Positions 3,906 through 35,050 of a stretch of 64,000 nucleotides of DNA are shown here, one piece after another; the stretch's first letter is position 1, and each line of letters starts with the position of its first letter. Made by a program: the position numbers and the translations under genes. This DNA is from an uncultured Clostridium sp. (lineage in GTDB: Bacteria; Bacillota; Clostridia; TANB77; CAG-508). The stretch covers positions 4,365 through 68,364 of the forward strand of contig CAMEWM010000001.1 in NCBI GenBank assembly GCA_945946655.1, given 5' to 3'. The notes below the pieces were generated by a model, which was not told the origin of the DNA, searched no databases, and worked only from the letters and a program-made list of their open reading frames with translations.

Positions 3906-3932
3906 ATTATATCCCCCATTTATAATATTCAT

Positions 3933-5084: not shown

Positions 5085-5085
5085 C

Positions 5086-12926: not shown

Positions 12927-12971
12927 TGGTTGCGGGGGTAAGACTCGAACTTACGACCTTCGGGTTATGAG
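12927..12971 (-). pseudogene. Orphan 3' half of initiator tRNA-Met (anticodon loop to CCA), att-site scar
   Basis: Minus strand reads CTCATAACCCGAAGGTCGTAAGTTCGAGTCTTACCCCCGCAACCA. This covers the CAT anticodon loop, T-arm GTAAG-TTCGAGT-CTTAC, and acceptor 3' strand plus ACCA. No complementary 5' acceptor strand or D-arm lies upstream. Confidence 0.75.
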
Positions 12972-13089
12972 GGTTACATAACGTATTTTATTAGATGTGT
13001 TGAATTGTATTGTATGCTAGTGATATTAGTACTTTGCTGGTTTTTTATTTAGTGTACAATTTTGTTAAAATTGGGGTGATTTTGAAAAT

Positions 13090-13114
13090 TTGATCCCCAA
13101 TTTCTCCCCAATTT
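13090..13114 (+). repeat. Left copy of the 25-bp direct repeat (candidate attL core)
   Basis: Exact match to 35184-35208. Flanking bases differ on both sides. Confidence 0.7.
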
Positions 13115-14053: not shown

Positions 14054-16633
14054 TTATATACCAGAAAAAGGTTCCAGTTTTTGTTCAAATATTAAATTAA
14101 TTAAGTCTTCTTTTTTCAAATCTTGTTTATATTCTATATTGTTTTGGCTTAATATTTCAACTATTTCTTCTTTTTCAAATGTTGTTAATTCACCTTTTAA
14201 TTGATCTTCTATTATCATTGAGCAATAATTATAGACTCTAGTAGTTTCCTCTTTTTCAAAAGGTCTATAATGTCTTTTTATTTTTATATATAAATTTGTT
14301 TTATCTTTCACATCATTATTTGTTAACATTGTTATTATTTCATTAACCTTTTCTTTTTTCTTATCTTCATTTTCTATTTCAATAACGCATAATATATATG
14401 TTATAAATGTCTCAAATTTGTTTTTTTCTTCTTTTATATATAATAATTTACATTCTAAAAACATATTAATAATGTATTCTTTCATAGAATCATCTATAAT
14501 ATTTTCATTTCGTATCATTATATATTCATAGAACTCATCTATCTCATATTGGATCATCCCTTCATCATAATATATCACATATTTATTATATATTCTTAAT
14601 GTTTGTATTAATATCTCTTTATATCTTTTAGTCAATTCTTCATCATTTAGATTACTAATTCTTAATGATATATCTATTATCAATTCAAGTATAGCATTTA
14701 TATCTGTATCTATAGTTACATAATAATTAGTTTTTCTTAAGAACACTATATTTTTTATTGTTTCTTCTTGCTCTAAAAATTCTAATAACTCATCAAATAT
14801 ATCTTCTCTATATAAAATGTCTTTATTAATTTTATTATCTTTAACTATATTAAAATTATAGTAATTTCTATAAATATTGCATATGGATATCGGTTCTAAA
14901 CAATTAAACATATGATTTAAAGCGATTCTTGCCCCATTATATTTCTTTATAAATTTTATATTAGTAGTAAGCATTGTTAATATTTTTTCAAGAGCTTTAT
15001 ATATCATTTCTAGCTTTACTCTTTTATACTTAGTTTCACTTTCTAATAATGTATATATTGGTATAATTAATAGCTCAATAGCATTTCTTAAGTTTATTTC
15101 GGATTCTTGATTTATTGCTTCTTTACAAATTACTATTACAGTGTCTACATACATTCCATCAATTAAACTTACAAATTTATCCCCATTTTTTATAAATATC
15201 TCTTTCATTATTCCTGTTGTCTCAAATAATAAATTTTCATTATTTAACTCCACAATGTCTTTAATATTATTTAAATAATAAGTTAATATGATTTTAATAG
15301 TTAGCTCTATATTATCCTTATTATTGATATATTTATTTTCTGATCCTAAAATAATTAATGCATAATATGTCTTTTGAATAATCGATATAATATCTCTGTT
15401 CTTTTCTTTTAAAGCTATTTTAGAGTATTCTTGTAAATATTCTAATATATATTTCTCTATAAAAATATCATTTTCCCCAGTCGATATAATCTCTGCTAAT
15501 AGCGGTTCTTCTAAATGGGTTATCTTATTTTTTCTTCTTTCTAACCTTTCTTTTGCAATATTAACATACACTTGCATAGCTTCTCTAAAGGCTATTGTGT
15601 CATTTATATTGTCTCTTACTATCATATTAATACATTGTACATATGCGGTATATATTTGATTGAATACTTCCATAAAACGTATATCGCTTTCTATTTTTTG
15701 GTTATTTCTTTCAGTATATTTCTTTATAATTTTGTATTCTTTTTCCAAGCATTTTGTAGTAACTTTTATCTTCTTTTCGCATTCTTTTATTATTTTTACT
15801 TTATCCAATTTATTCGATATAACTACTAAGTCAAGTCCAAATAATATAAAAATATATGTCAAACAGCAAATGTAAATTGATGTACTAATATAGTTATTAC
15901 AAATAATGTTAGACATAAATATAAATAAAATAGAAATTATTACTACTACAATATATTGTAAAATATCATATTTTTTATCATTTAATATCTTATCCATAAC
16001 TGAATTCATATATTTATATAATATTTGCTGTTTATATGTATTTAAAGAAAATATTAAAGCAACCATTCCGATTAGAGCTATTCCTGTGTCAGAATATATA
16101 TTATCTACTTTTAATTCAAAATCTATTATTACTAATAGTTTACTTATTATACATATCAAAATTATAAGTATTAATAGACTTATAAAAAGATAAATCGTTT
16201 TATATTGATTAAACTTTTCTAGTTCAAACAAAGCAATTCTTCTTTTTATTGCAAGTATTTTTTCTCCTATAAGCTTTTTTATTTTCTTATTATTCTTTAT
16301 TATTTTAATCGTTATAATAATTATAATAATACCAATTGCACAACCTAAAATTATCGTTTTATATGTATAAATAAATTTTGTAATCCATATAAAAAAACTA
16401 CAAACATAGAATATTAATGAAAATACTATTAATCGTATAGTCCAATGTGTAATAGAACCTATTCCTTTACCAGAAATAATATCATTATTATATAATTTTC
16501 TAACGCATTTCCATGCTATTCTATACGCAATTAAACCTATTATTGCCATAGCTATATAATTATATATAATGTTATCAAATAATATATATTCTCCTGTTAC
16601 TATTTCAAAAATTGGTTTTAGTATTTGTTTCAA
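14054..16633 (-). CDS. Large orphan membrane protein (859 aa): N-terminal ~8 TM segments plus ~570-aa all-helical cytoplasmic region
   Basis: Long uninterrupted ORF. Hydrophobic stretches through about residue 290. No catalytic motif recognised. Confidence 0.7.
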   Translation of the reverse strand: MKQILKPIFEIVTGEYILFDNIIYNYIAMAIIGLIAYRIAWKCVRKLYNNDIISGKGIGSITHWTIRLIVFSLIFYVCSFFIWITKFIYTYKTIILGCAIGIIIIIITIKIIKNNKKIKKLIGEKILAIKRRIALFELEKFNQYKTIYLFISLLILIILICIISKLLVIIDFELKVDNIYSDTGIALIGMVALIFSLNTYKQQILYKYMNSVMDKILNDKKYDILQYIVVVIISILFIFMSNIICNNYISTSIYICCLTYIFILFGLDLVVISNKLDKVKIIKECEKKIKVTTKCLEKEYKIIKKYTERNNQKIESDIRFMEVFNQIYTAYVQCINMIVRDNINDTIAFREAMQVYVNIAKERLERRKNKITHLEEPLLAEIISTGENDIFIEKYILEYLQEYSKIALKEKNRDIISIIQKTYYALIILGSENKYINNKDNIELTIKIILTYYLNNIKDIVELNNENLLFETTGIMKEIFIKNGDKFVSLIDGMYVDTVIVICKEAINQESEINLRNAIELLIIPIYTLLESETKYKRVKLEMIYKALEKILTMLTTNIKFIKKYNGARIALNHMFNCLEPISICNIYRNYYNFNIVKDNKINKDILYREDIFDELLEFLEQEETIKNIVFLRKTNYYVTIDTDINAILELIIDISLRISNLNDEELTKRYKEILIQTLRIYNKYVIYYDEGMIQYEIDEFYEYIMIRNENIIDDSMKEYIINMFLECKLLYIKEEKNKFETFITYILCVIEIENEDKKKEKVNEIITMLTNNDVKDKTNLYIKIKRHYRPFEKEETTRVYNYCSMIIEDQLKGELTTFEKEEIVEILSQNNIEYKQDLKKEDLINLIFEQKLEPFSGI

Positions 16634-16657: not shown

Positions 16658-17278
16658 TTATTTATTGTTTTTATTTTTGGGCAAATAATTTTTAATATCA
16701 TTAACAAAAAATGAAAGTAAATCTCCTTGCTTAAGTCCCTTTCTCTTTTGTCCCATATCCTTTCTAATTTCAAATACTATTTCTTCTAGTAAAAATAAAT
16801 TTTGCATAGCTATTGTTTTATCTTGTGAAAGTTCTCTAAATTTAATCCATTTTTTTATTACCCTGCTTGATCCCCATAATGTAAGTGACTCTGAAAAAGA
16901 AGATATATCATTTATCATTTGCTCTTGAGTATATTCTTCTTGATTATTTCTAGTGCTTTTTTGCAATTTGTATACCATTGATATAAAAGCTTTATACGGT
17001 TCTTCTCTTTTTTCATACAAATATCTTTTTGTTATTTGCCTGTATTCTATAAATTTAGATACAATTGAACTAATCAATACTGTTACTATAGATATACCAC
17101 CTGTAATAATTGCTACAATAACTACACTATCCATACTAGATGTAATACCACCTATTTTTTCTATTCCTTTTATTAATAAAATTCCTATATGTTTTATTAA
17201 TAAATATATTAATAAAAATAAAATTGCTACAATTGCTAAAGAATATATCATATTCAATACTTCTTTAAATTTCTTCAT
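16658..17278 (-). CDS. Orphan membrane protein (206 aa, 2 TM plus soluble C-terminal domain)
   Basis: ATG at 17278 behind AGGGTGA. Candidate own promoter TCGACA-N16-TATGAT upstream. 24-nt gap to the 859-aa ORF. Confidence 0.65.
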   Translation of the reverse strand: MKKFKEVLNMIYSLAIVAILFLLIYLLIKHIGILLIKGIEKIGGITSSMDSVVIVAIITGGISIVTVLISSIVSKFIEYRQITKRYLYEKREEPYKAFISMVYKLQKSTRNNQEEYTQEQMINDISSFSESLTLWGSSRVIKKWIKFRELSQDKTIAMQNLFLLEEIVFEIRKDMGQKRKGLKQGDLLSFFVNDIKNYLPKNKNNK

Positions 17279-17407
17279 AAAAATCACCCTTTTTATACTA
17301 TCATACTTTATTTAAATATTTTGTCGAAACCTGTCTTTTCTTATCAAAAAAGCAAAAAAATTATGTAACTTTCAATTACTTTCATATTTTGCTTTTCATC
17401 AGTATAT

Positions 17408-18640
17408 TTAATTATTTTTTTCATCAAGCAACCAATCCAACACATTTATCTTCTTTATTCCATCAAAGTCTGCATCTAAATCATCATCTAATGTCAAAAT
17501 GTATTTAGGATAATTATCATTTATTTTCCTCAATGGAGTTAATTCTCTATCTAAAATTTTATTATCTCCTTCATTTTCTCCTCTAGTTGTTAATGCAACT
17601 TGATAATATATAGTATTTTCTGGCTTTCTTGCTACGAAATCAACTTCTAAATCATCATATTTTCCTATATATACTTCATATCCTCGTCTCAACAATTCAA
17701 GATACACAACATTTTCTAATATATGTCCCATATCTCGGCCAGAGCCTTGTCCTAACATATAATATCTTAATCCTATATCTATCGCATAATATTTTTCTTG
17801 AGTTTTTAAAAACTCTTTTCCTTTAATATCATATCTGTTGGCTTTAAATATTAAATAACTATCTATTAATGCATCTACATAGTTTGAAATTGTATTATAT
17901 GATGAATTTTTTTCTATTCCTTCAATATTATCACTTATGCTTTTCATACTCGTTCTATTCCCTATGTTGTCATACAAATATTTTGTAACTCTTTCTAAGA
18001 CATTTTTATCTGTTATTCCTTTTCTTTGCATTACATCTTTAAATAAAATAGTGTTATATATTCCATCTAAAAATAAATTTATATTTTCTGGGTTTATTTT
18101 ATATAATTCAACTGCTTGAGGAAATGAACTATATCTTAGATAATCTCTAAATTTTCTTGACAAGTCTGTTTTATCTTCAAAGCTTGATAAATATTCTTTA
18201 AACGATAATGGCAACATTTTTATTTCTATATATCTTCCTGTAAGCAATGTTGCTAATTCTGAAGATAATAAATATGCATTTGAACCTGTTATATATAAGT
18301 CTACATCTTTATTTATAAATAGGCTATCTACTGTTTTTTCAAATTCGTTTACATTTTGAATCTCATCTAGAAAAACGTATGTCTTTTTTCCTTTTACTAG
18401 TCTTTCTTTTATATATTCGTATAATTTCTTTCTGTCTTGTAATTCCTCATAATCTGCGTTTTCAAAATTTATTGATATTATTTGCTTTGCTTCTACTCCA
18501 TTTTCTTTTAAGTAATCTTGAAAAATTTCAAGCAATGTTGATTTACCACATCTTCTTATTCCTGTGATAACTTTTATTATTTGTTGATCTTTGAAATTTT
18601 TTAATATAGATAAATAATTTTCTCTACTTATTCTTTCCAT
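17408..18640 (-). CDS. AAA-type ATPase with DUF4143-like C-terminal domain
   Basis: ATG at 18640 behind AGGAGG. Walker A GIRRCGKST, Walker B VFLDEIQ. The size and layout match the common ATP-binding protein/DUF4143 family. Confidence 0.8.
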   Translation of the reverse strand: MERISRENYLSILKNFKDQQIIKVITGIRRCGKSTLLEIFQDYLKENGVEAKQIISINFENADYEELQDRKKLYEYIKERLVKGKKTYVFLDEIQNVNEFEKTVDSLFINKDVDLYITGSNAYLLSSELATLLTGRYIEIKMLPLSFKEYLSSFEDKTDLSRKFRDYLRYSSFPQAVELYKINPENINLFLDGIYNTILFKDVMQRKGITDKNVLERVTKYLYDNIGNRTSMKSISDNIEGIEKNSSYNTISNYVDALIDSYLIFKANRYDIKGKEFLKTQEKYYAIDIGLRYYMLGQGSGRDMGHILENVVYLELLRRGYEVYIGKYDDLEVDFVARKPENTIYYQVALTTRGENEGDNKILDRELTPLRKINDNYPKYILTLDDDLDADFDGIKKINVLDWLLDEKNN

Positions 18641-18782
18641 AAATCTCCTCCTAACTATAATAATTATACTATCTTTTATCATTATAGTCAAGTTTTTTCA
18701 AAATTATGAAAAAACTTTTGTTTTTTTAGTAGTTCTTTCAAATACCCCTTAATTTTTTTTACTCTCTAGCTAACTATTAAAC

Positions 18783-18828
18783 AAAAAAATATCAATAAAT
18801 TTAAAAACTTTCTCAATTTTATTGATAT
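18783..18828 (-). terminator. Rho-independent terminator ending the SNF2-to-Res operon
   Basis: 11-bp perfect stem ATATCAATAAA/TTTATTGATAT (18789-18799 with 18818-18828), followed on the minus strand by TTTTTTT. Confidence 0.65.
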
Positions 18829-18851
18829 TTTATCTTCTTCATTCTTTTCTC

Positions 18852-21800
18852 CTATTCTATCGGAACTACTCCTGTAACTAAATTAATTAAATTTTCATAA
18901 CTATCTACAACACCATATTTAACTGCTCCATTACTTATTGCTTTAAAGTGTTTTCTAGCACAAGCAATTTTTCCTTGCTCTGCACCTTTTAGTTGAGCTG
19001 ATTGCATACTTCCTTTTGTTTCTGCAATAAAGTAAATGTATTTTATATCTTTATTATCAAAAACTAATGCCCAGTCAGGATTATAATTTCCAAAGGGTGT
19101 TCTTATTTTAAATCCGTTCGGAAGTTTTGCATATATGGTAACTTCTCCTTGTTCTAGTTTTCTAGCAAATTCCATTTCAATAGTAGAATCAGTTATTACA
19201 TAATCATAAATGTGTTTCTTAACTTCAAGTGCATTTACTCCTAATTTTCCTGTTAGATTATTTTCTGTGAATATTTCATTACTGAATTTATCTTCTGTTT
19301 TGTTATAAGTAATTCCATCAATTATAGTAGTTGCTTTTTCATCATTTATTAAATTAGATGCTTTTCTTATAAATTCTTCAGGATTATACTTAAATTGTTC
19401 AAATACATCTTGTCTTATATTCTTCAAAATTTCTATAATTGTATGTCTTGTAAGTCCTGTATCTGTTGCAATGCTTCCTATTAAGTCATATTTAGTTGTT
19501 ACTGGTACAAAATCATCATAAACTTCGTTTCTAACTTTTCCAACTATCATAGAATCTTCATCTTTTAGTTGGCTTACACTCATTGTATTTCTTTGTTCTC
19601 CTTCAGTTATTCTGACTCTCATTTTGCTTATAATTAGTTTATCATTTAAAGCTTTTATTGCTTTTTCTATTAGTTCATTAGAATCAAAATCAACTTCATA
19701 TATAGATTTTACATTTATTTTATTCCATAACTCTTGAAATTCTTTTTTATAGAAATTATCATTTAACTTTAGATTGCTAATGTTGTTTTTATTTGCATTA
19801 CCTATTTCAATTTTTGTTTCTGTAAATAGTGATGTTATAAGTTTTGTATATTCTTCTATATGATCTTGCATTACTTCAGGAATACTAATTGCATTGTTTG
19901 CAATATCTTCTTTTAGTTTGTGTGTGATGTTATCATTTTCATCAATGTAATCATTTTTCATAAAATCTCTGTAAATTTTATTTACTACTGTTTCATCTAT
20001 AGGTAATGATTTTCCATCTTTATTTACTAACTCTCTATCAATAAATATTTTTTGCTCAAACTTATCAAATGATTTTCTTGATAAGTTTGCTGATATTTCG
20101 CTTTGTAATGCTTTTGCAAATGAATCATAACTTTCACTTGCTATAACAGTAAGATTATTGATATTAAAGAAATCATCTTCAAGTTCTCTATAATCCATTC
20201 TATCTCCATTGCTATTAACACAAATACGAAGTCCTCTACCTATTTCTTGTCTTTTACTTATTTCAGAATTACTTTTCTTTAAAGTACATATTTGGAAAAT
20301 GTTTGGATTATCCCAACCTTCCCTTAATGCTGAGTGAGAAAATATAAATCTTACAGGTTCTGATAATGATAATAATCTTTCTTTATCTTTCATAATTAAA
20401 TCGTAAGCATCTTCATCAGAACTTGTCCCCTCTGCTTTATCATCAATCTTAGAATCAATAAATATTTGTTCATCTTCAGATAATCCTTTTGATGCTTTTT
20501 TATCTATTGAAAAATAACCACTGTGTACTTTTTTTCCATTTAATGAATCTAAATATTTTTTATAATCTTCATCTATGAAATTATAAAATTCATTATATAT
20601 GTTATTATATTCTTCTTCAAATATTTTTGCATATTCTCCATTATGTGCTTTTTTATTTTCATCATATACTTTGTATTTGGCTACTTCATCTATAAAGAAT
20701 AAAGATAATACTTTTATACCCTTTTTATAATATTCTCTTTCTTTTTCAAAATGTGATCTTATAGTTTCTCTTATTTGTATTCTAGCCATATAATCTTCTT
20801 CTGCATCTCCAATTATTTGACCAGTTGTAATTTCTTTTCCATTTGTAAATTTTACAATATCATAAGACATATTTTGAGCATTTATTTCACTTATCACATA
20901 GCCTCTATATTCTTCTAATTCACCTGATAATTCAAATAAATTTGCTCCTGCACTAAACTTTTTAGTTTTCTTTGTTACTCCTGTAGATGATTTTGTTTCT
21001 ATTTCAATATATGCAACAGGATCAGACTTACTTATTTCTACCCTATCCAAATATAAATATGTATCTTCTGATTTATTATGTAATAATTCTATTCCTTTTA
21101 CATTTATTTTTTTAACAAGTTTTTGATTATAAGCATCTACTGCATCAAGTCTATATACCATATTATATTTGAACTTTTCTTTGTGAGTAGCAGAATAACG
21201 AATTATAAATAAAGGATTGAACTCTTTAAGCATTTCTTCTGTTTTTCCCATCTTTTGTGGTTCGTCTATAATAAGTATAGGATTTGTTGCTTTTAATACA
21301 TCTATAGGTTTTCTTGATTGTAGTTCATCAAGTTCTTCATATATTCTTCTATTATTTTTTGATTTTGTGTTAAATGCTTGATAATTCATTATCATAACTT
21401 GTATGCTATTATCTTCAGCAAAATTATTTATATTGGCTATATTTGAAGAATTATTTGAATTATATACAAAAAATCTTATTTTCTTCTTGTATAATTCTTG
21501 AAAATGTTCCTCTGTTATTTGAAAAGATTTTAGTACACCTTCTCTAATTGCAATGCTTGGAACAATAACAATAAATTTACTCCATCCATAAGCCTTATTT
21601 AACTCATACATTGTTTTTATATATGTATAAGTTTTTCCAGTACCTGTTTCCATTTCAACAGAATAGTTTTCATAGCCTTGATTATCTGTGTAATCTAAAT
21701 TATTTTGTTTTTGTACTGTTCTTATATTTTTCCTTAATTCTTCTGATGTAAGCATTATTTTATTGTTTCCAAAAGAAATAATATCTTCAACAGAATTTTG

Positions 21801-21968
21801 ATTCCAATAATCTTTTCCAGTCGCATTTCTTAAATCAAATTTAGTTTCTCTTCTACCAATTAAATCATGTCTGGTTCCTTTAGGTTGTCCTTCAAAACAT
21901 TTTACAATAGATAAAGAAGCATCTTCTTGATATTGTTGCTTTTTAAATTTTAGTTTCAATAAATTCAC
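18852..21968 (-). CDS. res: Type III restriction enzyme Res subunit (SF2 helicase plus C-terminal PD-(D/E)xK nuclease)
   Basis: Walker A METGTGKTYT, motif II IIDEPQKM, motif VI-like QEIGRGLRI, C-terminal NPDWALVF...IAETKG nuclease motif. Confidence 0.88.
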   Translation of the reverse strand: MNLLKLKFKKQQYQEDASLSIVKCFEGQPKGTRHDLIGRRETKFDLRNATGKDYWNQNSVEDIISFGNNKIMLTSEELRKNIRTVQKQNNLDYTDNQGYENYSVEMETGTGKTYTYIKTMYELNKAYGWSKFIVIVPSIAIREGVLKSFQITEEHFQELYKKKIRFFVYNSNNSSNIANINNFAEDNSIQVMIMNYQAFNTKSKNNRRIYEELDELQSRKPIDVLKATNPILIIDEPQKMGKTEEMLKEFNPLFIIRYSATHKEKFKYNMVYRLDAVDAYNQKLVKKINVKGIELLHNKSEDTYLYLDRVEISKSDPVAYIEIETKSSTGVTKKTKKFSAGANLFELSGELEEYRGYVISEINAQNMSYDIVKFTNGKEITTGQIIGDAEEDYMARIQIRETIRSHFEKEREYYKKGIKVLSLFFIDEVAKYKVYDENKKAHNGEYAKIFEEEYNNIYNEFYNFIDEDYKKYLDSLNGKKVHSGYFSIDKKASKGLSEDEQIFIDSKIDDKAEGTSSDEDAYDLIMKDKERLLSLSEPVRFIFSHSALREGWDNPNIFQICTLKKSNSEISKRQEIGRGLRICVNSNGDRMDYRELEDDFFNINNLTVIASESYDSFAKALQSEISANLSRKSFDKFEQKIFIDRELVNKDGKSLPIDETVVNKIYRDFMKNDYIDENDNITHKLKEDIANNAISIPEVMQDHIEEYTKLITSLFTETKIEIGNANKNNISNLKLNDNFYKKEFQELWNKINVKSIYEVDFDSNELIEKAIKALNDKLIISKMRVRITEGEQRNTMSVSQLKDEDSMIVGKVRNEVYDDFVPVTTKYDLIGSIATDTGLTRHTIIEILKNIRQDVFEQFKYNPEEFIRKASNLINDEKATTIIDGITYNKTEDKFSNEIFTENNLTGKLGVNALEVKKHIYDYVITDSTIEMEFARKLEQGEVTIYAKLPNGFKIRTPFGNYNPDWALVFDNKDIKYIYFIAETKGSMQSAQLKGAEQGKIACARKHFKAISNGAVKYGVVDSYENLINLVTGVVPIE

Positions 21969-21975
21969 CTCTTTT

Positions 21976-22770
21976 TCACATTATTCCAAAAAGTCCGAGT
22001 ATTCCACTAGCAATTAAATTTGTTCCTGTTCCCATTGCAATTTCTTTTAATAATTCTACTACCTTATTCTTATTTTTCTTATTACAACTTTCTTTTATAT
22101 TTTCAATAATTTTTTCACTTAGATTACTTTCTTTTTGCATTAGATCAAGTTTTTCTAACACGATTTCAAATAATTTATCATCATTCACTTGATTAAAATT
22201 CGTTTGATTTATTATTCCATTATTAGTATTACAATAAATATTTTGAGTAATAATCTTATTCTCTGTATTTTTATTTTCTGTTATAATAGGCTCAATGTTT
22301 TCATAATAAATAAAGGCTACTCCATTTTGTCCACCTTTTATAATCGTTTTTTCGTTTTCGAATTTTATAATATTATTTTCTTTACAAAATTTCAAAATAT
22401 TTGCTCTTGCTATATCATCCATATTCAAAAATATCTTTTTAAAATCTTCTCTTTCTAATGCTCCTTTTTCATAAATAATCTCCTTCATTTGCACAGCCTT
22501 GTAATTCAAAAAGTCCGTTCTTCCTTTTTGAGTCAGTCTCGGAAAATGATTATATTGTGTCTGTCCAAGAATTCCTCTTAATATTTCTATACAATTTTCA
22601 TCTACCAAGTCTCTATTTTCTTGCCAAAATTCTGAAATATCAAAGTCTTTAGCTATTATACTATCAAGTATTTTTATCAACTCTTGATTATCTTTTACTA
22701 TTCTTTTTTCTATTTCAATATCTTTAGAATATATATAATTAAAAATATCTATATTTAATTCTGTTATCAT
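21976..22770 (-). CDS. Orphan 264-aa protein with C-terminal hydrophobic tail, embedded between mod and res
   Basis: Start overlaps the mod stop (ATGA, 22767-22770). 8-nt gap to res. The C-terminus AMGTGTNLIASGILGLFGIM looks like a tail anchor. No known motif. Confidence 0.6.
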   Translation of the reverse strand: MITELNIDIFNYIYSKDIEIEKRIVKDNQELIKILDSIIAKDFDISEFWQENRDLVDENCIEILRGILGQTQYNHFPRLTQKGRTDFLNYKAVQMKEIIYEKGALEREDFKKIFLNMDDIARANILKFCKENNIIKFENEKTIIKGGQNGVAFIYYENIEPIITENKNTENKIITQNIYCNTNNGIINQTNFNQVNDDKLFEIVLEKLDLMQKESNLSEKIIENIKESCNKKNKNKVVELLKEIAMGTGTNLIASGILGLFGIM

Positions 22771-24718
22771 ATTACATTTACCTCTGTTTCTTGTGATATT
22801 TTTTTTATTCTTTCAAATGTATTTATTTTATCACTATCAGTTTTAAATGAACTTTCTTTAAATACTATTTTCAAAGGGTTACATTTACAAATTTCATCTA
22901 CTATGTTTATATCTATGGTATCATCAAAACATGCGACAAGTGAATTATTTTCCACAAAATAAACATTATTATTAAATATTTTTCTTTCTTCTATTGATAA
23001 ATCTAATGTTAATCCTAAATCTAATATAACTTGTGTCAACAAATCTTCTGATGTTCTATCTTCTTTTATATTAGATTCAAATATATTTAGTTGAGCTTGT
23101 TGTAAATCGGTTGGAGCATAATATACATCTTTCATATTAGATGAATCCACCTTATAAACTCTAAATCCAATGTCCAAATTAGCATTTTTTATCTTTTTAC
23201 CAACATTTTTTATTCTTTTTTCACCCAAATCACATATAGTTTCGTTGTCTTTAACACCATCTTCTATCAAGCGTTCTGGCAATTGAACCATTATAAATTT
23301 TATTTTTTTACTGTATTCATTGTTGTACTTTAAGCATGCATGCGCAGTAGTTGCACTGCCTGAAAAGAAATCTAAAACATAATATTCATCATCATTTAGC
23401 CATTTAATTAATTGTTCTATCAGTCTAACTGGTTTTTTTCCATTTTTAAATTTTATATTTCCTTCATCATCTATATTTCTCATGTCAAAGTGAAACCCTT
23501 TCCATAAATCTCCTCTATATGTACACCTAGTATAATTTGACATGTAGTTATCTGATTGCTTTAAGCAGTCTGAAAACTTTATATACATTCTTATCGAACC
23601 AGTTGCCGTCTTAAATAATAGCTTATTATCATACAAAAACACTTTATTTTTTTCATATTTTTCTAAAATAGATTCATCTATTTTTTTACTATATGGTGCA
23701 TCGCATATAATTTCGGAGCTATCTCGTTGTACATATATTTTTTAAAATCATTATCAATTTGCATTAAAGTATTTATATTATCATTTGTTAATTTTAAATT
23801 ATACCTTAAAAATTTATCACTTATTGAGTGATTTGATTTTAAATATTCTATTAAATTGTATGTGCACATTTTTTCGTCAATAACAGTTTTATAATGTGTA
23901 TCAAATAACTCTCTCATTTCATCAACAAGTGGGCACTTTTCTTTTGTATCTTTATCTTTATTTTTTTTGTATATTAATATATAGTCTTTAACTTTAACAA
24001 ATGTTTTACTCACATGAGCCGCCTTAGTTCCAAAAACCTCTCCACTTTCAATGGTCAAAATTGTCACAAAATTATTTTCTCCATATATTTCATCACATAT
24101 AATTTTTAAGTCAGCAACTTCATTATCATCTATGCTTATGAAAATATAGCCATCATCTCTTAATAGATTTCTAGAAATTTTTAATCTAGAATACATCATT
24201 GCAAGCCAATTACTATGAAATTTACCATTACTTTCCTGATTAGATACTAGTTTATTATCATATTCATCTATCTGTCCTGATTCTTCTAATTCATTCTCAT
24301 TTATGAATTTATCATTATAAATAAAATCATTTCCTGTATTATATGGCGGATCAATATAAATACATTTAATCTTATTCAAATATGATTCTTGTAATATTTT
24401 TAATACTTCTAAATTATCTCCCTCAATATAAATATTTTTTGTATTATCAAAGTCAACAGATTTTTCCTTAACTGGTCTTAAGGTTTTATTGCAAGGAGTA
24501 TTAGCATTTACTAATGCCTCTTTCTTTCCAACCCAAGATAATTGGTATCTTTCTTTTCCATCATCTATTATATCTTTAGATAATTCTTGTTTTAGCATAT
24601 CAAAATCTATTTTTCCTTCACTTATGCAGTCAGGAAATAATTCGGATATCTTACTAATATTATCTTTTACAATATCTTTTGACTTCATATCTAATTTATG
24701 TATTTCTTCATTATTCAT
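22767..24718 (-). pseudogene. mod: Type III (beta-class N6A/N4C) DNA methyltransferase Mod, split into two ORFs by a frameshift at an A7 tract
   Basis: N-terminal ORF 23678-24718 has motif IV IYIDPPYNTG. C-terminal ORF 22767-23642 has motif I DFFSGSATTAHA. Order IV-TRD-I is typical of Type III Mod. Adding one A to the A7 run (23681-23687) fuses the frames. Confidence 0.85.
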
Positions 24719-25322
24719 TATTACTTAATTCCTCCTTTTGCTTTTTTAATTCTAATATATTCTTATTCAATTCTACTTTTTTATTAAATTGTTTTTCTGA
24801 TTTCATTTTGTTTTCAAGTCTTTCTATTTCTTTTTGAACTTCTTTCAATTTCTTGCCTTTTTCTAATTCTTCGTCTATATTATTATTTTGTTCTGAAATA
24901 TTTGTAACACTTCTTATGATATTTTCATATACTGCATTTAAATCAATTCCATTAAAGTTAAATTCTATTTTTTCATTCCAATTTGTAAAGTAAATATCAT
25001 CATTGTGTTTTATTGCATATTGTACTTCATCCTTATAGCATATTTCAAATAAAATAATATATGGTATATTCTTTGTAATCACTTTAATTATATTTTGACA
25101 ATTTACTTTTTCTTTCAATGTAAGTTCAAATATTTCTATTTCTTCAACATTTTCCGTTTTTGATATATTCAATGTATCTTCTGATATTTTATATTTCCAA
25201 TATATTTTATCAATTTTATCAACAAATTCTTGTTTTAAATTTGAAGATAAACTAACCTTTTCATAAAATATTTTCTTTGGTATAAATTTATCTACTATAC
25301 ATTCTTTAGGAAGTTCTATCAT
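24711..25322 (-). CDS. DUF4391-like protein
   Basis: 203 aa. The N-terminus IPKKIFYEKVSLSSNLKQEFVDKIDKIYWKYKISEDTLNI matches my recollection of DUF4391, a family typically next to SNF2 helicase and methylase genes. Start overlaps the SNF2 stop by 1 nt. Confidence 0.6.
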   Translation of the reverse strand: MIELPKECIVDKFIPKKIFYEKVSLSSNLKQEFVDKIDKIYWKYKISEDTLNISKTENVEEIEIFELTLKEKVNCQNIIKVITKNIPYIILFEICYKDEVQYAIKHNDDIYFTNWNEKIEFNFNGIDLNAVYENIIRSVTNISEQNNNIDEELEKGKKLKEVQKEIERLENKMKSEKQFNKKVELNKNILELKKQKEELSNNE

Positions 25323-28300
25323 TATACAATTGCTACAAATGCTATAAGTTCAAAATCATCAAGTCCTGATATATCATTTTTTAGCATTGTAGTTCCTCCT
25401 TTCCTAAATAGACTATCAATATCACTTTCTTCTTTTACATCTATAATTGATGTAATGCTTTTATTAAGTAAATCTGAATATTTACTCATATCATTTCCGT
25501 CATTAGTTATTTCATTAAATTTTGTATATGCTTCCTTAATTGGCTCTTTCTTTCCTTTTGATACATATCTTATTAAATCTAATGTATTTTTCACATTTAA
25601 GTGATTAGATAATATTTCTCCATTTTCTTTTATATATACTATATAAAATGGATGTAACTGATTTGTGCTTTCAATATTTACATTAGCATTTATGTTTTTT
25701 AATATGAATATTGCTCCCTTTTCTACTCCGTTTTGTTCATCAGATAATACAACTGAGTGCATTCCATTTGAAACATAGTCTAAATTTCCGTTATGATTTA
25801 TATATTCAACTAGATCCATTCTATAGTCATTTAATCCTAAATCAGTAATCGAAACACCTGTATTCATATCTTCAAGGTCAACAACTTCTTCTTTTAATTT
25901 TTGTAATTGTGCTTTTCTATATTCCATATCACTAGATTGATTTGTTAAAACATTATCTTCTCCTGTAGCAGAAATATCTAGCATATACATTCTACTTTCT
26001 ACTCTATTTTTTAAGTTAATGTAATCGTCCAAATTCATATTTGGCCAGAAATTAACTAATTGTATCTTTGAATTTTTAGAACCAATTCTATCTATTCTTC
26101 CAAATCTTTGTATTATTCTTACAGGATTCCAATGTATATCATAATTTACTAAATAATCACAGTCTTGCAAGTTTTGTCCCTCACTTATACAGTCAGTTGC
26201 AATTAGTATATCAATTTCCTTGTCCTTTTTTCCCTCTAGTATATCTCTATTTTTTGAAATAGGAGAAAAATTGATTAGTAGATTATTATAATCTTTATCA
26301 ATATTCATTGTGCATTTATTAGCACCACCACCTGTTACAAGTGCTGTATCTAAACCATATTCTAATTTTATAACTTTGCTTACATTTTCATAAAGGTAAT
26401 TAGCAGTATCTGCAAAAGCGCTAAAAACGATTACCTTTTTGTTTCCAGCATTTATTGGATTTTCAATTTTATTTCTTATCAAATTTATTAGTTCAGTAAG
26501 TTTCAAGTCATTATTAGGTTGTATTCTTTGAAATTCTTTCAATAAATCAGATAGTATAAATTGATCATACATTAGGTCTTCTTTCCAACCTATTGTATTC
26601 ATATCTTTTAGATTGATTTTTACCTTTCCACCAATTAAGAAATCATTATCCATTAAATCTAGTATGTCTTCATCTTCTTCATAATCCTTTATACTCATAT
26701 CATCAAAAGTTGCATCAGTTCCATTTGTTTCAAAATTTTTTATTGCATCTATTGTAAAGTTTATTTGACTTAGAATTTTACCAATTGTTAATCTAAATGA
26801 ATCAACAGAACTTTCTAATCGTTTTAATAGATTTATTCTCATTAGTTTTTGTAAGCTTTTCTCTCTATCTGATTGTTTTAGTTTTGATGCTCCTCCTCTT
26901 ACTTTTGTATCATATAAATCTTCATATTTTGTAACACAATTAGGCAATATATAGTCAAATGGTGTATATACACACATACTTAATTTTGTTAAAGAGTCAT
27001 ATATTTCTTTGATTGAATAAAAATTATCTATATTAGTTATTTCACTTGTTATGCTTATTGGTTTTAATCTTGTAGGAAACTTACCAATTTTATTCATATC
27101 ATAATATTTCTCAATATGTTTTCTACTTCTTGCTATTGTTACACTATCTAATAATTTAAAGAAATCAAAATCTTCATTTAATCTTCTTAATAGTGATTGT
27201 GAATCTCTTTCTTCTATAGGAAGTTTTGACCATTCATTAAAAATAGTTTGAGCATTTTTTAAAATAGTATCTATTGATTTAGTCTTGCTAATATTTTCAT
27301 CTATCTTATCAGTATTGCCTTCATAAGCCAATGCAAGTTGATTTTTTAAATCTGTAAATCTATTATTTACTGGTGTTGCTGATAGCATCAATACTTTTGT
27401 TTTAACTCCTGCTTTCATTACATCATTTAATAATCTTGTATATCTCGTTTCTCTATCATTTCTTGCACTATTATTTCTAAAATTGTGAGACTCATCTATA
27501 ACAACAAGATCAAAGTTTCCCCAATTTATTCTTGATAAATCAATATTTCCTGACATTCCTTTTTTTCTTGATAAGTCTGTATGATATAATACCCTATAAT
27601 TAAATCTATCTTTAGCAAGGATATTGTCTTTATATTCGTTATTATAAGTATTCCAATTATTTGCCAACTTTTTAGGACATAAAACTAAAACACTTTTATT
27701 TCTTTCTTGATAATATTTTATAACTGCAAGTGATGTAAATGTTTTTCCTAGTCCTACACTATCTGCCAAAATACAACCATTATATTTTTCAAGTTTATTT
27801 ATAATTCCTAATACTGCATCTTTTTGAAAATCATATAACTTATTCCATATTACAGACTCTTTAAATCCAGTTTTTTCATTTGCTAATTCATCTTCTGAAA
27901 CATCTAGCAAGAACTCATTGAAAATATTATACAAAATAACATAGTAAATAAATTCAGGAGAATTTTCTTTATATAAGTCTGAAATAAAATCAATTACATC
28001 ATCTGTAACATCCTTTAAAACACTTTTATTATTCCAAAGTTCCATGAATGATTGTAGATAATACTTTGTCATTTCATAATTATCATCTATTTTTGTTACA
28101 GGATTAAATACAGTATTATCTTTCTGATACCCTAATCCTGCTGATGAAAATTCGTCTACATTCAAATATGTAATTTTATCATTTATATTCATAAACTTTT
28201 GAATTGGATTATTATTAACATTACTTTTAAATTTGGCTTTGTTTTTTATCCATTCTGCACATTCTTTTGCAATTGCTTTTCCATTAAGTTTATTTTTTAG

Positions 28301-28585
28301 TTTTATTTCAAATTCTGATCCACTAATACTTTTTTCTCTTTTAAAATTGTCTAACTCAAATATTCTTTCTGTTTTAGTGTCTTTCTTTTCTTTTATAAAT
28401 GTTGGATTAGTAAAAATAAAATCTAACTCTTTAATATTTTTAAGTTCTTTTTTTAATTCAGAAAAACCATACATAGAAAATACTGCTGATGCTATAAAAC
28501 AACTATCATTTGCTTTTATTTCTTCTTTTAAATCATTTCCAAATTTATTTACTCTATTATCTATTACTTTCATTTTATTCCCCAT
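25322..28585 (-). CDS. SNF2/Rad54-family helicase (about 1085 aa) with non-catalytic N-terminal extension
   Basis: Motif I ILADSVGLGKT, motif II VVIDESHNFRN, motif III LMLSATPVNN, motif VI QRFGRIDRIGS. Alternative start ATG at 28573 behind TGGGGA. Confidence 0.88.
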   Translation of the reverse strand: MGNKMKVIDNRVNKFGNDLKEEIKANDSCFIASAVFSMYGFSELKKELKNIKELDFIFTNPTFIKEKKDTKTERIFELDNFKREKSISGSEFEIKLKNKLNGKAIAKECAEWIKNKAKFKSNVNNNPIQKFMNINDKITYLNVDEFSSAGLGYQKDNTVFNPVTKIDDNYEMTKYYLQSFMELWNNKSVLKDVTDDVIDFISDLYKENSPEFIYYVILYNIFNEFLLDVSEDELANEKTGFKESVIWNKLYDFQKDAVLGIINKLEKYNGCILADSVGLGKTFTSLAVIKYYQERNKSVLVLCPKKLANNWNTYNNEYKDNILAKDRFNYRVLYHTDLSRKKGMSGNIDLSRINWGNFDLVVIDESHNFRNNSARNDRETRYTRLLNDVMKAGVKTKVLMLSATPVNNRFTDLKNQLALAYEGNTDKIDENISKTKSIDTILKNAQTIFNEWSKLPIEERDSQSLLRRLNEDFDFFKLLDSVTIARSRKHIEKYYDMNKIGKFPTRLKPISITSEITNIDNFYSIKEIYDSLTKLSMCVYTPFDYILPNCVTKYEDLYDTKVRGGASKLKQSDREKSLQKLMRINLLKRLESSVDSFRLTIGKILSQINFTIDAIKNFETNGTDATFDDMSIKDYEEDEDILDLMDNDFLIGGKVKINLKDMNTIGWKEDLMYDQFILSDLLKEFQRIQPNNDLKLTELINLIRNKIENPINAGNKKVIVFSAFADTANYLYENVSKVIKLEYGLDTALVTGGGANKCTMNIDKDYNNLLINFSPISKNRDILEGKKDKEIDILIATDCISEGQNLQDCDYLVNYDIHWNPVRIIQRFGRIDRIGSKNSKIQLVNFWPNMNLDDYINLKNRVESRMYMLDISATGEDNVLTNQSSDMEYRKAQLQKLKEEVVDLEDMNTGVSITDLGLNDYRMDLVEYINHNGNLDYVSNGMHSVVLSDEQNGVEKGAIFILKNINANVNIESTNQLHPFYIVYIKENGEILSNHLNVKNTLDLIRYVSKGKKEPIKEAYTKFNEITNDGNDMSKYSDLLNKSITSIIDVKEESDIDSLFRKGGTTMLKNDISGLDDFELIAFVAIV

Positions 28586-28885
28586 TTCATATATGCTTAG
28601 ATTTTATCATATTTTTACAATTTTTACTACTTTTTGTAAGAAATTTGTCATATTTTTGCCATTTTCCAAAAGAGATTTCATAATTTTTAATTTTCTTATT
28701 TAAGAAGGGTTTGGGACTTTCCCAACTATCAAGAACCCTTTGTATGCACAAAGGGGAATCTTGCTAAAAACATTTCTCTTATTTTAGTTCTTTTTGCTCC
28801 AAAACAATGTAAAAAGAAAAGTGACATTTTTATCTGCCACTAATCATTTCACATCTAAAGTAATTTAGCTTATACTCCAGTTATC

Positions 28886-29755
28886 TCAACTATTTTGTAG
28901 CGATTCCCTAATTAGGGAATCGCTCATTCTATGGTCATCGTCCTTAATTTCAATACCACCACACATTTCATATAGTCTTGAAATTATTGAATCAACAATA
29001 CTATAATTTTTATTTATACATAATCTTTCTCTTAATTGATTTCTGTTATAATTTGTGGTTATAACAATCGGCAAATAATTATTATATCTATTATTCACTA
29101 TCAAAAATAATTTTTCTAATACCCATTCTGTTGGCTTTTCTTTTCCTAGATCATCAATCACTAAAAGATCAACACTAGAATATAAATTCAAATAATCTTT
29201 ATCAGAAACTTCTGAATCGCTATATGAATCTCTAATAAAATCTAACAATTGTATTAAAGTTCCAAATATTACTGATTTTCCGTTCTTAATAATTTCATTT
29301 GCAATGCATGATGCTAAATAAGTTTTACCCACACCATAAGCTCCTGTTATAAAAAGTCCTTTATTAGTTGTTCCTTTTATCAATTTATCTACATATTTTT
29401 TAACATTTTCATAAGCATTTTTATTCTTATTTGTTATTTTATAATTTTCAAATGTGCTATTTAATTGACGTTTTCCTAAATTATTATTTTTAAATAATTT
29501 GTTTATTTTACTTAAATTGATTTTTCTTATTTTGTCTTTTTCAATGTATTCATCGTATTGTTGCCAAATTTTACTAGCTTCATTACAGGTACATCTTTCG
29601 TATGCAGTTGCTATATCTTTATAAACAATATTGACATATAGTGCAGTATAATCATTTATATGTAATAACTTTCCACAGAATTTGCACTGCTTGTGCATTT
29701 TATTATCAGTATCTAAAACTATGTCAGAAATCAATTGTTTTGAATCCACTACCAT
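28886..29755 (-). CDS. DnaC/IstB-like AAA+ helicase-loader ATPase
   Basis: Walker A GAYGVGKTYLA, Walker B LLVIDDLGKE, N-terminal CxxC zinc ribbon. Follows the replisome-organizer gene. Confidence 0.8.
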   Translation of the reverse strand: MVVDSKQLISDIVLDTDNKMHKQCKFCGKLLHINDYTALYVNIVYKDIATAYERCTCNEASKIWQQYDEYIEKDKIRKINLSKINKLFKNNNLGKRQLNSTFENYKITNKNKNAYENVKKYVDKLIKGTTNKGLFITGAYGVGKTYLASCIANEIIKNGKSVIFGTLIQLLDFIRDSYSDSEVSDKDYLNLYSSVDLLVIDDLGKEKPTEWVLEKLFLIVNNRYNNYLPIVITTNYNRNQLRERLCINKNYSIVDSIISRLYEMCGGIEIKDDDHRMSDSLIRESLQNS

Positions 29756-30239
29756 TTTCACCTACCTTTATATCATCTTCTAATCTATTATTTTCTATTT
29801 TATTCTTTTCTGTTATATTCTCTTCTTCCACGTTACTTGACGTTTGTGTAACGTTACTTTCTTCTTTTTTCTTATCTCTAAATCTTTTTTGTCTTGCTCT
29901 ATTTTGCTCTAAAATTTTCTCATATTTATCAATACTTTGATACTTATACCAGTTTTTAATTATATATGTATTTTCCTGATATATTAGCATCTCTAAATGG
30001 ATTAATTTGTTCAATATATTTTCCATTTTTGCGTCCGTTTTGTGAATGATTGTTGCAAGTTCATGCACTGTCATCGGATTATTTTCTGAAATCATTAACT
30101 TTCCTTCTTGCATACACTGTCCTGCTATTGTTAATAATTGAATCCATACTCTAAAAAATGTGTCCCCATCACGTTCTTTGAGTAATATTTTGATTTTTGG
30201 ATTTGCAAATATATCTGTAAACACTTTAATCCATTGCAT
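29724..30239 (-). CDS. Phage-type replisome organizer (N-terminal domain) / DnaD-like protein
   Basis: MQWIKVFTDIFANPKIKILLKERDGDTFFRVWIQLLTIAG matches the phage replisome organizer N-terminal pattern. Paired with the DnaC-like gene. Confidence 0.65.
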   Translation of the reverse strand: MQWIKVFTDIFANPKIKILLKERDGDTFFRVWIQLLTIAGQCMQEGKLMISENNPMTVHELATIIHKTDAKMENILNKLIHLEMLIYQENTYIIKNWYKYQSIDKYEKILEQNRARQKRFRDKKKEESNVTQTSSNVEEENITEKNKIENNRLEDDIKVGENGSGFKTIDF

Positions 30240-30455: not shown

Positions 30456-30700
30456 ATAATCACCTCTCTTTTTCTTAAATTCTTTATGCAAAAATATGTA
30501 TAAATATTAAATTTTATATATTCTTGCATTTACATTTGTATAATTTAGTTAACTAATTATTATCTATTATTTTAGATGTTTTATTTGCTCTAAAAAACCG
30601 TACAGATAATAATTCTAAAATTTATTTCTATTGTATGGCTATTTCTTTATTTTTTTAATTTGTAAAAAAATTTATGATTTTTGGTATATTTTCCAATATT

Positions 30701-31010
30701 ATTTCGCCTATGTATTCAGAAAGATTAAATCTTAAAAATTTTTTGTAGTTTTACTAAGATTTTTGAGTCTTTCTTCGCCTATTTGTATATAGGAATATTA
30801 AAATTTTAAAATTCTTTATAAATTTTGTGAGATTTTTTAATTTTATTTCGCCTATTATATTAGAAAGCATAAAAATTAATTTTTTTAAATTTTTTGATAG
30901 GTTTTTCCATTTTTCTTCGCCTATTATGTATGAAAGCATAAAAAATTAATTTTTTAAAAATTTTTGGGAATTTTAATACTTTCATTTCGCCTTTTATATA
31001 TAGAAAGGTT
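30701..31010. repeat. Five tandem ~70-bp iteron-like repeats (core TTCGCCTAT), candidate replication origin or Rep operator
   Basis: Core at 30703, 30774, 30847, 30916 and 30986 (spacing 71, 73, 69, 70 bp). Whole units are homologous (TTCGCCTATTAT-TA-GAAAGCATAAAAATTAATTTTTTAAA). A degenerate sixth unit may lie near 30633. Confidence 0.8.
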
Positions 31011-31042
31011 ATAAATTTAATACAAGTTCAAGGAGGAAAATT

Positions 31043-33850: not shown

Positions 33851-35050
33851 GTGACAGGTAGTATTGAAAAGCGAGGAAAAAACAGTTACAGGCTAGTAGT
33901 ATTCAAAGGATATGACCTAGATGGCAGACCAATAAGACATCAAAAAACAATACACTGCAAGAAAAAATCAGAAGCACAAATAGAACTTGCAAAATTTCTA
34001 ACAGAAGTAGAAAGTGGACTAATAGTAGACGGAAACATCCCAACATTTGCACAATATGTGGAAATATGGACAAAGGATTACGCATTAAAAAAACTAGCAC
34101 CATCAACTTATTATAGATATAAACGCATGCTAGAAACAAGGATAACTCCATATTTTGGACATTATAAACTAAATAAAATCAAACCAACAGACATAATGAG
34201 ATTTTATGATTTACTTGAAGAAGATACTCAAATTGTTAGAAGAAAAAATAATAATGGAAAGAAAACAAGAAAGCCCTTATCTCAAAAGACAATATTAGAG
34301 CACCATCGTTTGCTATCAGCAATGCTTCATAGAGCAGTATATTGGCAACTTATTGTAAGCAATCCTGCTGAACGTGTTCAACCACCGAAAACATCTAAGC
34401 CATTAAGACGTCATTATGATGAAGAACAAACTAAAATTCTTGTTGATAATTTGCAAAAGTTAAAAGGCAATCAAATTAAATATCGTACTGCAATTTTACT
34501 TGATATTTTTACTGGAGCAAGGCTTGGTGAACTTGTTGGGCTTGAATGGAGTGATATTGATTTAAAAAATGGTATTATCAATATTAATAAGTCTAGTCAA
34601 TATCTTTCTGAAAAAGGAGTTTTTACTGAGGCACCTAAAACAGAAAGTTCAATAAGAGATGTTGCAATACCTGATTTTATTGTTTCTTTACTTGAGGAAT
34701 ATAAGTTATGGTATGATGAACAAAAAGCGATTGTAGGCGATTTCTGGCACGAATCTAATAGGTTATTTGTTCAAGATGATGGTAAACCTATTAATCCATC
34801 TACAATTAGCAAATGGTTTGAACAGTTTGTTAAAAAGATTGGATTGCCTGTAATTAATTTTCATGGTTTGAGACATACAAATGCAACTCTTCTTATTTCA
34901 CAACAAGTTGATGTTGCAACAGTATCTGCTAGGCTTGGTCATGCACAAATTACTACTACATACAATTTCTATGTTCACCCACTAAAATCTCATGATAGGA
35001 CTGCTGGAAATGTATTAGAGAATTTGTTAATTTCAAGCAAGGCAAATTAG
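33851..35050 (+). CDS. Tyrosine recombinase / integrase (Tn916-Int/phage-integrase type)
   Basis: GTG start behind AAAGGAGG. N-terminal arm-binding-like SIEKRGKNSYRLVV. Catalytic TGARLGEL and HGLRHTNATLLI...LGHAQITTTYNFYVH. Confidence 0.9.
   Translation: MTGSIEKRGKNSYRLVVFKGYDLDGRPIRHQKTIHCKKKSEAQIELAKFLTEVESGLIVDGNIPTFAQYVEIWTKDYALKKLAPSTYYRYKRMLETRITPYFGHYKLNKIKPTDIMRFYDLLEEDTQIVRRKNNNGKKTRKPLSQKTILEHHRLLSAMLHRAVYWQLIVSNPAERVQPPKTSKPLRRHYDEEQTKILVDNLQKLKGNQIKYRTAILLDIFTGARLGELVGLEWSDIDLKNGIININKSSQYLSEKGVFTEAPKTESSIRDVAIPDFIVSLLEEYKLWYDEQKAIVGDFWHESNRLFVQDDGKPINPSTISKWFEQFVKKIGLPVINFHGLRHTNATLLISQQVDVATVSARLGHAQITTTYNFYVHPLKSHDRTAGNVLENLLISSKAN

Follow-up and report, generated by a model that had tools for sequence, protein, structure and literature searches.

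Type III restriction-modification (R-M) enzymes are usually seen as well-understood two-subunit machines. In the canonical systems (EcoP15I, EcoP1I, StyLTI; structure 4ZCF), the modification subunit Mod, a beta-class N6_N4 methyltransferase in which DPPY and FxGxG motifs occur, precedes the restriction subunit Res, which joins a superfamily 2 (SF2) ATPase to a C-terminal PD..ExK endonuclease. SNF2 ATPases, HKD fusions included, are known to recur in systems of the R-M-like kind (PMC3417536, PMC2292703, PMC12839542), and in the DUF499 'Type-2 BR' systems, the DUF3780 protein adjoins an HKD-SNF2 helicase and has also been seen fused to an ASCH domain (PMC12839542). Here, a stretch of 64,000 nucleotides (nt) from an uncultured Clostridium sp. 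(GenBank assembly GCA_945946655.1, contig CAMEWM010000001.1, positions 4,365 to 68,364; the whole stretch is called the window, and all coordinates refer to it) was analysed for an operon on the minus strand at 18852-28585, which encodes an SNF2 ATPase, a DUF4391 protein, a Type III mod, a 264-amino-acid (aa) open reading frame (ORF), and a Type III res. The locus has the same Mod-then-Res pair as the canonical systems; unlike in those systems, however, this Res clade is preceded by an SNF2 ATPase and a DUF4391 protein in one coupled operon. The locus belongs to a widespread, tightly conserved four-gene R-M module with the fixed order SNF2, DUF4391, Mod, Res.

An initial annotation made from the sequence had listed six co-directional, tightly packed ORFs. 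In transcription order, these back-to-back ORFs measure 1087, 203, 346, 291, 264, and 1038 aa. Their shared direction and packing held, whereas the gene number did not: a 1-nt deletion near 23704 splits mod into two ORFs, and the six ORFs hence represent five genes. The junctions could be read from the sequence as they had been described, i.e., the A at nt 25322 is common to the TAA stop of the SNF2 gene and the ATG of the DUF4391 gene, the DUF4391 gene and mod overlap by 8 nt (ATGAATAA), and mod and the 264-aa ORF (orf264) overlap as ATGA. The 7-nt gap given between the orf264 stop and res applies to a start at GTG 21968, but not to the probable start. As a Shine-Dalgarno sequence (AGAGGTG) spans this GTG and the Res proteins of relatives comprise 1035 aa, res probably starts at TTG 21959, which leaves a gap of about 16 nt. 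Similarly, the SNF2 gene probably starts at ATG 28573, giving a product of 1083 aa, the length found in its relatives. A profile hidden Markov model scan against Pfam was in line with the initial family assignments and returned SNF2-rel_dom and Helicase_C, DUF4391, N6_N4_Mtase distributed over two ORFs, and ResIII together with RE_endonuc.

For DUF4391, 1,516 representative clusters at 50% identity were retrieved (E <= 1e-3), and a search of the species-representative genomes with a single DUF4391 peptide pattern led to 480 confirmed copies. Synteny was determined on the 80 best loci, which were searched by tblastn with the proteins of the window, and gene order was read as far as the contigs reached. 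SNF2, DUF4391, Mod, and Res followed each other in this order on one strand in 78 of the 80 loci, an arrangement far beyond chance, as it recurs in unrelated phyla. The hosts comprised Bacillota (Clostridia, Bacilli, Paenibacillus, Brevibacillus), Saccharibacteria and other members of the Candidate Phyla Radiation, Omnitrophota, Desulfobacterota, Bacteroidota, Fibrobacterota, Planctomycetota, and two metagenome-assembled genomes (MAGs) of DPANN archaea. The association was also followed in the reverse direction: each opened plasmid region with a Res of at least 44% identity carried all four genes, including those around plasmid Res proteins of 44-49% identity that the DUF4391 tblastn search had overlooked (Lactococcus pJM1D, Photobacterium, Listeria). 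The four genes were further present on E. coli IncFIB plasmids and Acinetobacter pMsp65, and the module was also encountered on Enterococcus plasmids. SNF2 and DUF4391 as conserved neighbours of Mod and Res, an expectation raised at the outset, thus found strong support in both directions. A two-gene Type III system of Mod and Res only does not describe these loci, as SNF2 and DUF4391 were coupled neighbours in the 78 loci and on all plasmids inspected.

Pairwise identity matrices were calculated for the 46 loci that were complete and were compared by Spearman correlation. By mean pairwise identity, SNF2 was the most conserved component (0.66), followed by Res (0.60), Mod (0.54), and DUF4391 (0.48). 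The matrices of SNF2 and Res (0.93), SNF2 and DUF4391 (0.88), and DUF4391 and Res (0.84) were highly correlated, while Mod correlated with the other three at about 0.6. The recognition region of Mod was variable, and the same DUF4391 allele was found with Mods of 612, 616, and 650 aa. By sequence comparison, this pattern fits three co-inherited partners and a Mod whose recognition region is swapped. Across the 80 loci, passenger genes occupied all three intergenic slots; their Pfam names included RhuM, 23S_rRNA_IVP, PDDEXK_3, ORF6N, and Bro-N, which are usual hitch-hikers of Type I operons. These passengers insert between the four genes and leave the set unbroken, which, together with the fixed and translationally coupled order, the association in both directions, the SNF2-Res correlation, and the lack of a predicted effector domain in SNF2-DUF4391 (the PLD domain of the SNF2 protein being predicted to be dead, see below), makes it highly improbable that an ordinary Type III R-M system and a separate SNF2-DUF4391 defence system travel side by side as two independent units, as might be proposed from the clustering of defence genes in islands, from the PDC-S01 candidate gene next door, and from the action of SNF2 helicases in several systems, the single-protein HmaA included (PMC11232893).

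Among E. coli, the module was rare (10 of 5,426 complete genomes, nine of them on plasmids; e.g., NZ_CP101235.1, 3254-12300, locus L085). The copy on pEC21Z137-115K is separated from repA by about 2 kb; this IncFIB plasmid also has phage-like genes (5'-3' exonuclease, LAGLIDADG endonuclease) and may be a phage-plasmid. Several plasmid copies were damaged, namely by IS712 in the SNF2 gene (pJM1D, L093), by ISPa14 between mod and res (pMsp65, L086), and by a split mod in the Listeria plasmid copy (L095). Since the damage differs from copy to copy, it suggests that the module is often inactivated.

The mod gene of the window (22767-24718, minus strand) is a pseudogene in its present form, split into a 346-aa ORF with the DPPY motif at residue 123 and a 291-aa ORF with FFSGS at residue 92. 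N6_N4_Mtase was identified via Pfam, and the PADLOC model MTase_III matched both halves. Compared to the intact 650-aa Mods of relatives (loci L001 and L003), the sole indel is a CC dinucleotide shortened to a single C at about 23704, and metagenomic relatives with the intact 650-aa Mod share 95-96% identity with the region 22771-28657. Phase variation of mod was considered and rejected, as the deletion lies in a dinucleotide and not in a repeat tract. The Mod of an intact relative matched EcoP15I Mod (4zcf_A) at 1.3e-55, and judged by this homology, Mod is a true Type III protein, a beta-class N6-adenine methyltransferase homologous to EcoP15I Mod. The truncated product was absent from every other contig of the collection, and intact alleles of the same lineage were common among the metagenomic relatives; accordingly, the frameshift either is confined to this genome or reflects an assembly error. 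Unless it is the latter, the system is probably silent in this genome. We put the chance that the cluster is a decaying relic, in which the frameshift inactivates methylation and, because a Type III Res needs its Mod, also restriction, slightly below even: the position of the 1-nt deletion outside any homopolymer tract, its restriction to this contig, and the comparable damage on pJM1D, pMsp65, and the Listeria plasmid speak for decay, but none of the other genes is damaged, identity to intact relatives amounts to 93-96% across the region, and a single-base indel could stem from assembly or sequencing. Such decay would in any case apply to this copy only and not to the family.

The res gene (18852-21968, minus strand, with the likely start at 21959) encodes an SF2 ATPase with a C-terminal PD..ExK endonuclease (Pfam ResIII and RE_endonuc, the latter at 3.3e-34) and matched the PADLOC model REase_III at 8.7e-293. 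EcoP15I Res (4zcf_C) could be aligned with residues 67-1015 at 6e-69, and both subunits, Mod as well as Res, are homologous to the canonical Type III enzyme over their full length. The motifs GTGKT, DEPQ, PD, and ETK were invariant in 51 Res homologues. On the NCBIfam model of Type III endonucleases, the protein reached 378 bits against a cut-off of 564; its sequence accordingly identifies Res as a true Type III protein that forms a distinct subfamily. No other protein of the unit has a nuclease that is predicted to be active, as the PLD domain of the SNF2 protein is devoid of the catalytic histidine.

The SNF2-family ATPase (25322-28585, minus strand, likely start 28573) consists of an N-terminal dead PLD-like domain, an SNF2 motor (Pfam SNF2-rel_dom, Helicase_C), and a conserved C-terminal domain. 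The motifs that had been called intact in a protein of about 1085 aa were indeed present (GLGKT278, DESH364, SATP402, and QRFGRIDR826 for motifs I, II, III, and VI, respectively) and were conserved at 90% or more across 60 homologues. Conservation extended through both flanking domains; the C-terminal 230 residues had a mean column identity of 75%, and a sequence profile search retrieved no relative of this domain from the PDB. The N-terminal domain (27851-28573) was modelled with AlphaFold2 (AF2; residues 5-245), which gave a PLD fold with a predicted local distance difference test (pLDDT) score of 76, and above 85 in the core. Foldseek searches with this model returned SauUSI as the best match (5e-5), further the NgoAVII R protein, Nuc, and PLD3/4, and also the known inactive PLD folds FAM83 and MITD1. 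Pfam PLDc_2 was detected in a paralogue but not in the SNF2 protein itself, and in an hhalign comparison, the HAK motif of the paralogue with the significant PLDc_2 domain fell opposite IQxx of the SNF2 protein, i.e., the catalytic His/Lys (HKD) motif is missing. Residues 1-330 do not include a single histidine, and none is invariant across 51 homologues. From the modelled fold and the missing histidine, the PLD domain is predicted to be catalytically dead. Orthologues of the protein were at least 42% identical over the full length and paralogues at most 28%, which is a sharp gap, and the paralogues inspected (helicases with intact PLDc_2) adjoined large DNA methyltransferases in two-gene loci. 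Taken together, the dead PLD domain, the gap between orthologues and paralogues, and the location of the latter beside methyltransferases suggest that the SNF2 protein was domesticated from PLD-SNF2 restriction subunits and lost its nuclease activity.

The DUF4391 protein (203 aa; 24711-25322, minus strand) matched PF14335 over its full length (1.6e-43; 149.7 bits, gathering cut-off 29.9). Its AF2 model was very confident (pLDDT 96) and comprised an alpha/beta domain (residues 1-140) and a C-terminal antiparallel coiled-coil hairpin (helices within residues 149-201), on which the most conserved motif of the family, EKQFNKKVELN, is located. No Foldseek match of the model against the PDB and BFVD was better than E = 0.07, the weak endonuclease-like matches not being usable, and in a PDB profile search, the C-terminal part matched only designed antiparallel coiled coils. 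PADLOC and NCBIfam hold no model for DUF4391. One homologue (P0260, 380 aa) was fused to an ASCH domain (8.9e-7), a fold often tied to the reading of modified bases. As further variants, a 376-aa form with an unannotated C-terminal extension (P0196) and a 510-aa DUF4391-like gene between SNF2 and the normal DUF4391 gene (locus L039, 8467-9999) were observed.

As to how the module may work, we lean slightly towards a Type III enzyme that depends on a second motor, the SNF2 protein, which DUF4391 tethers. Mod would recognise a short site via its variable target-recognition region and methylate it, and Res would contribute the switch driven by ATP as well as the sole active nuclease (PD..ExK). 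The SNF2 protein, descended from PLD-SNF2 restriction subunits and with its own catalytic centre lost, would be the second motor acting on double-stranded DNA. In PLD nucleases, Nuc and SauUSI among them, the active site is built across a dimer; the retained PLD fold would hence most simply bring two SNF2 motors together, and the protein is probably dimeric. DUF4391 would tether the SNF2 dimer to Mod2Res, with the coiled-coil hairpin, a typical connector between proteins, as the protein contact, while its globular domain may touch DNA or read the modification, a contact suggested by the presence of this domain and by the occasional ASCH fusion. The resulting Type III enzyme would carry a Type I-like translocase, which would add ATP-driven translocation or the removal of roadblocks to the Type III switch-and-slide mechanism; through the SNF2 motor, long-range communication could become directional, or invading DNA could be freed of roadblocks.

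A further-reaching reading, which we hold only tentatively and regard as somewhat doubtful, is that the module represents an unrecognised ATP-dependent restriction class, in which a PLD-dead SNF2 dimer and DUF4391 make Mod/Res directional and loop-translocating, with DUF4391 as a new adaptor that senses DNA or its modification. If there is such a two-motor class, the enzyme need not follow the rule of two head-to-head sites, and this Res clade would lie outside the standard Type III mechanism. It is less probable, and in our view unlikely, that SNF2-DUF4391 is a control module for self-protection or for setting up methylation, e.g., one that strips stalled Mod/Res or reads N6-methyladenine as a stop. 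Such a role would answer the inherent autoimmunity risk of Type III enzymes, which methylate one strand only, and would suit an SNF2 protein without a nuclease of its own, whose relatives such as RapA (among the weak matches) recycle stalled complexes, as well as the DUF4391-ASCH fusion, which suggests a modified-base reader; canonical Type III systems, however, do without a control module, and the strong conservation of the 1083-aa motor together with the PLD-SNF2 descent fits an effector-side role at least equally well.

Several observations weigh against the obligatory second motor and the module as a distinct entity. Canonical Type III enzymes function with Mod and Res alone, mod is frameshifted in the copy studied here, and the gene order differs in the two exceptions among the 80 loci, both of them short contigs from a single Vampirococcus MAG. 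We infer a physical complex, and a need for SNF2 and DUF4391 in restriction; for the translocase and tether roles, SNF2 motors, Type I enzymes, and SauUSI-like architectures served as analogues. The role given to DUF4391 is a guess, because the protein has no structural relative, and its ASCH fusion is known from a single representative. Finally, a named candidate system may already cover the module (Gao et al. 2020, outside the literature search).

The loci examined show a whole clade of Type III Res/Mod that is tied to a highly conserved SNF2 motor and to DUF4391, a protein without a recognised fold. If SNF2-DUF4391 is required, long-range communication and self/non-self control would differ in this clade, DUF4391 would gain a function, and the SNF2 protein would be an example of a restriction nuclease-helicase domesticated to a pure motor. 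As plasmid-borne versions exist in E. coli, the question is open to direct standard phage assays.

The fifth gene of the operon, orf264 (21976-22770, minus strand), had been described as an orphan. It is rare and has no Pfam match, but it is not an orphan in the strict sense: three homologue clusters in total were found among 5.8 billion proteins, and every homologue sits in the slot between Mod and Res. The closest relatives of the locus (93-95% identical) are without the gene, which corresponds to an insertion of about 810 bp exactly between mod and res in the window. As it is missing from these relatives, rare, and always in the same slot, orf264 is an accessory passenger outside the conserved unit. 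The exact protein was common in gut metagenomes, beside an intact 616-aa Mod. The homologues shared 39-53% identity overall, yet the hydrophobic, glycine-rich C-terminal tail IAMGTGTNLIASGILGxFGxM was invariant; from its composition, this tail looks like a membrane-inserting glycine-rich helix, and it gave a weak AbiTi match (E = 0.0047). A PrrC-like back-up role for orf264 is conceivable.

Downstream of res, a hairpin followed by a U-run (18783-18831, minus strand) is the probable intrinsic terminator of the operon. The initial description of a strong terminator was correct with regard to the structure, as RNA folding gave a 20-bp hairpin and the U-run (free energy -13.9 kcal/mol, z -4.0; none of 200 shuffled sequences equally stable), but not with regard to the word strong, since the stem is nearly all A-U and a GC-based consensus terminator scanner did not call it. 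In a genome of 25% GC, an AU-rich hairpin as operon terminator is plausible.

The operon is carried by an integrative element of about 22 kb (13082-35208), delimited by direct repeats of 33 nt (25 nt exact) at 13082-13114 and 35176-35208, with a tyrosine integrase at one end (33851-35050) and a lower GC content inside than outside. Just beyond the other end, a tRNA 3'-half fragment (CAT anticodon loop to CCA) is located at 12927-12963; Rfam and tRNA scans detected no complete tRNA and no Rfam family in the window. The replication module, upstream of the operon, encodes a phage-type replisome organiser and an IstB/DnaC-like ATPase (28886-30239), and four iteron-like 69-nt direct repeats (30665-31016) beside the replisome-organiser gene are probably the replication origin of the element. 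Downstream of res, a PDC-S01 candidate defence gene (AAA_14/DUF4143 ATPase; 17408-18691, minus strand; PADLOC 1.6e-154) was identified, a homologue of which also lies downstream of res in loci L002, L003, and L104-L108. Beyond it, an 859-aa ORF (14054-16633) and a 209-aa ORF (16658-17287), both on the minus strand, had no match in Pfam or PADLOC. Near the element boundary, a DUF6602 protein (10843-11601, minus strand), matched by the PADLOC PD_DExK and NucC-like nuclease models (6.7e-29), is a candidate defence effector. At 555-6543 (minus strand), a Type I hsdR gene (HSDR_N, ResIII, EcoEI_R_C, and an N-terminal DUF4145) is followed by ORFs of 383 and 485 aa that are probably hsdS and hsdM; this locus lies just outside the element, which makes the region a defence island. 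On related contigs, a ThsB_TIR (Thoeris) gene was located a few genes downstream of the module in a gut relative (locus L106, 12577-12795), indicating a defence island there, and Spo0A was encoded beside the module in another case, which points to a host among the Clostridia.

To compare the module with named systems, its products and neighbouring genes were searched against PADLOC and NCBIfam. PADLOC returned the generic models MTase_III and REase_III and one distant full-length model, 'HKD+Snf2' (C3a139), but no multi-gene system; an intact E. coli plasmid homologue searched in PADLOC and NCBIfam likewise gave no multi-gene system, its Mod, Res, and DUF4391 having only generic matches or none. 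RefSeq names for the genes were generic as well (a plain Type III system, 'helicase-related protein', 'DUF4391 protein'). The initial annotation had set the locus apart from DISARM and BREX, and both distinctions stood: the SNF2 protein scored 156.7 bits on NCBIfam DISARM_DrmD (cut-off 610) with neighbours devoid of DrmA/B/C, and no significant PglZ or BrxC match was obtained for the operon and the genes around it, where a single BrxC match (E = 8e-4, on the IstB-like ATPase) was of a generic P-loop kind. Hma was rejected as the identity of the module on its defining partner genes or score cut-offs, and Type-2 BR because DUF499, DUF3780, and DUF1156 were absent from the six products and the neighbouring genes. 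In agreement with the initial statement that no mechanism had been assigned, the literature searched contained no functional account of an SNF2-DUF4391-Mod-Res module; DUF4391 was mentioned in a Pfam enrichment table and in an apparent slip for DUF7941, neither of them functional, and PF14335 was not mentioned. The module is thus conserved, yet apparently without a description in the named systems or the literature.

The closest relative of the SNF2 protein in defence databases is C3a139, aligned over residues 6-1084 at 2e-132, and this three-part architecture, the pairing of the helicase with a DNA methyltransferase, and the full-length alignment are shared with the PLD(HKD)-SNF2 systems (two-gene loci; C3a139; 'Type-2 BR', PMC12839542). 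In those systems the catalytic histidine is retained, whereas it is lost here, and the orthologues of the protein are set apart from these paralogues by the identity gap given above; an HKD/PLD-SNF2 helicase with a catalytic HxK was therefore rejected in spite of the PLD fold and the full-length alignment. Gao_RL, which has an SNF2 helicase as well, is a possible further member of this group and may be the system to which C3a139 belongs. As the SNF2 homologue of the intact E. coli plasmid, too, scored only 404 bits on C3a139, the relation looks paralogous by sequence. Type-2 BR (PMC12839542) resembles the module further in a small standalone protein of unknown fold beside the helicase, DUF3780 and DUF4391 both being found fused to ASCH, and differs in the partners, which here are DUF4391 and a Type III Mod/Res instead of DUF499, DUF3780, and a DUF1156 methylase. 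DISARM class 1 (DrmD, DrmMI, and DrmA/B/C) similarly places an SNF2 helicase beside an adenine methyltransferase, but DrmD models match the helicase core only. SauUSI (a Type IV ATP-dependent restriction enzyme, 7CLG) comes closest in structure to the N-terminal domain and has the same order of PLD, SF2 motor, and C-terminal domain; it is, however, a single-protein modification-dependent nuclease with an active PLD, while the SNF2 protein here has a PLD predicted to be dead and belongs to a methylase operon. Type I R-M systems with embedded passengers, finally, share the core of motor subunit and methyltransferase and the passenger genes in intergenic slots, whereas the module described here is without HsdS or HsdM and carries its nuclease and its second motor on separate proteins.

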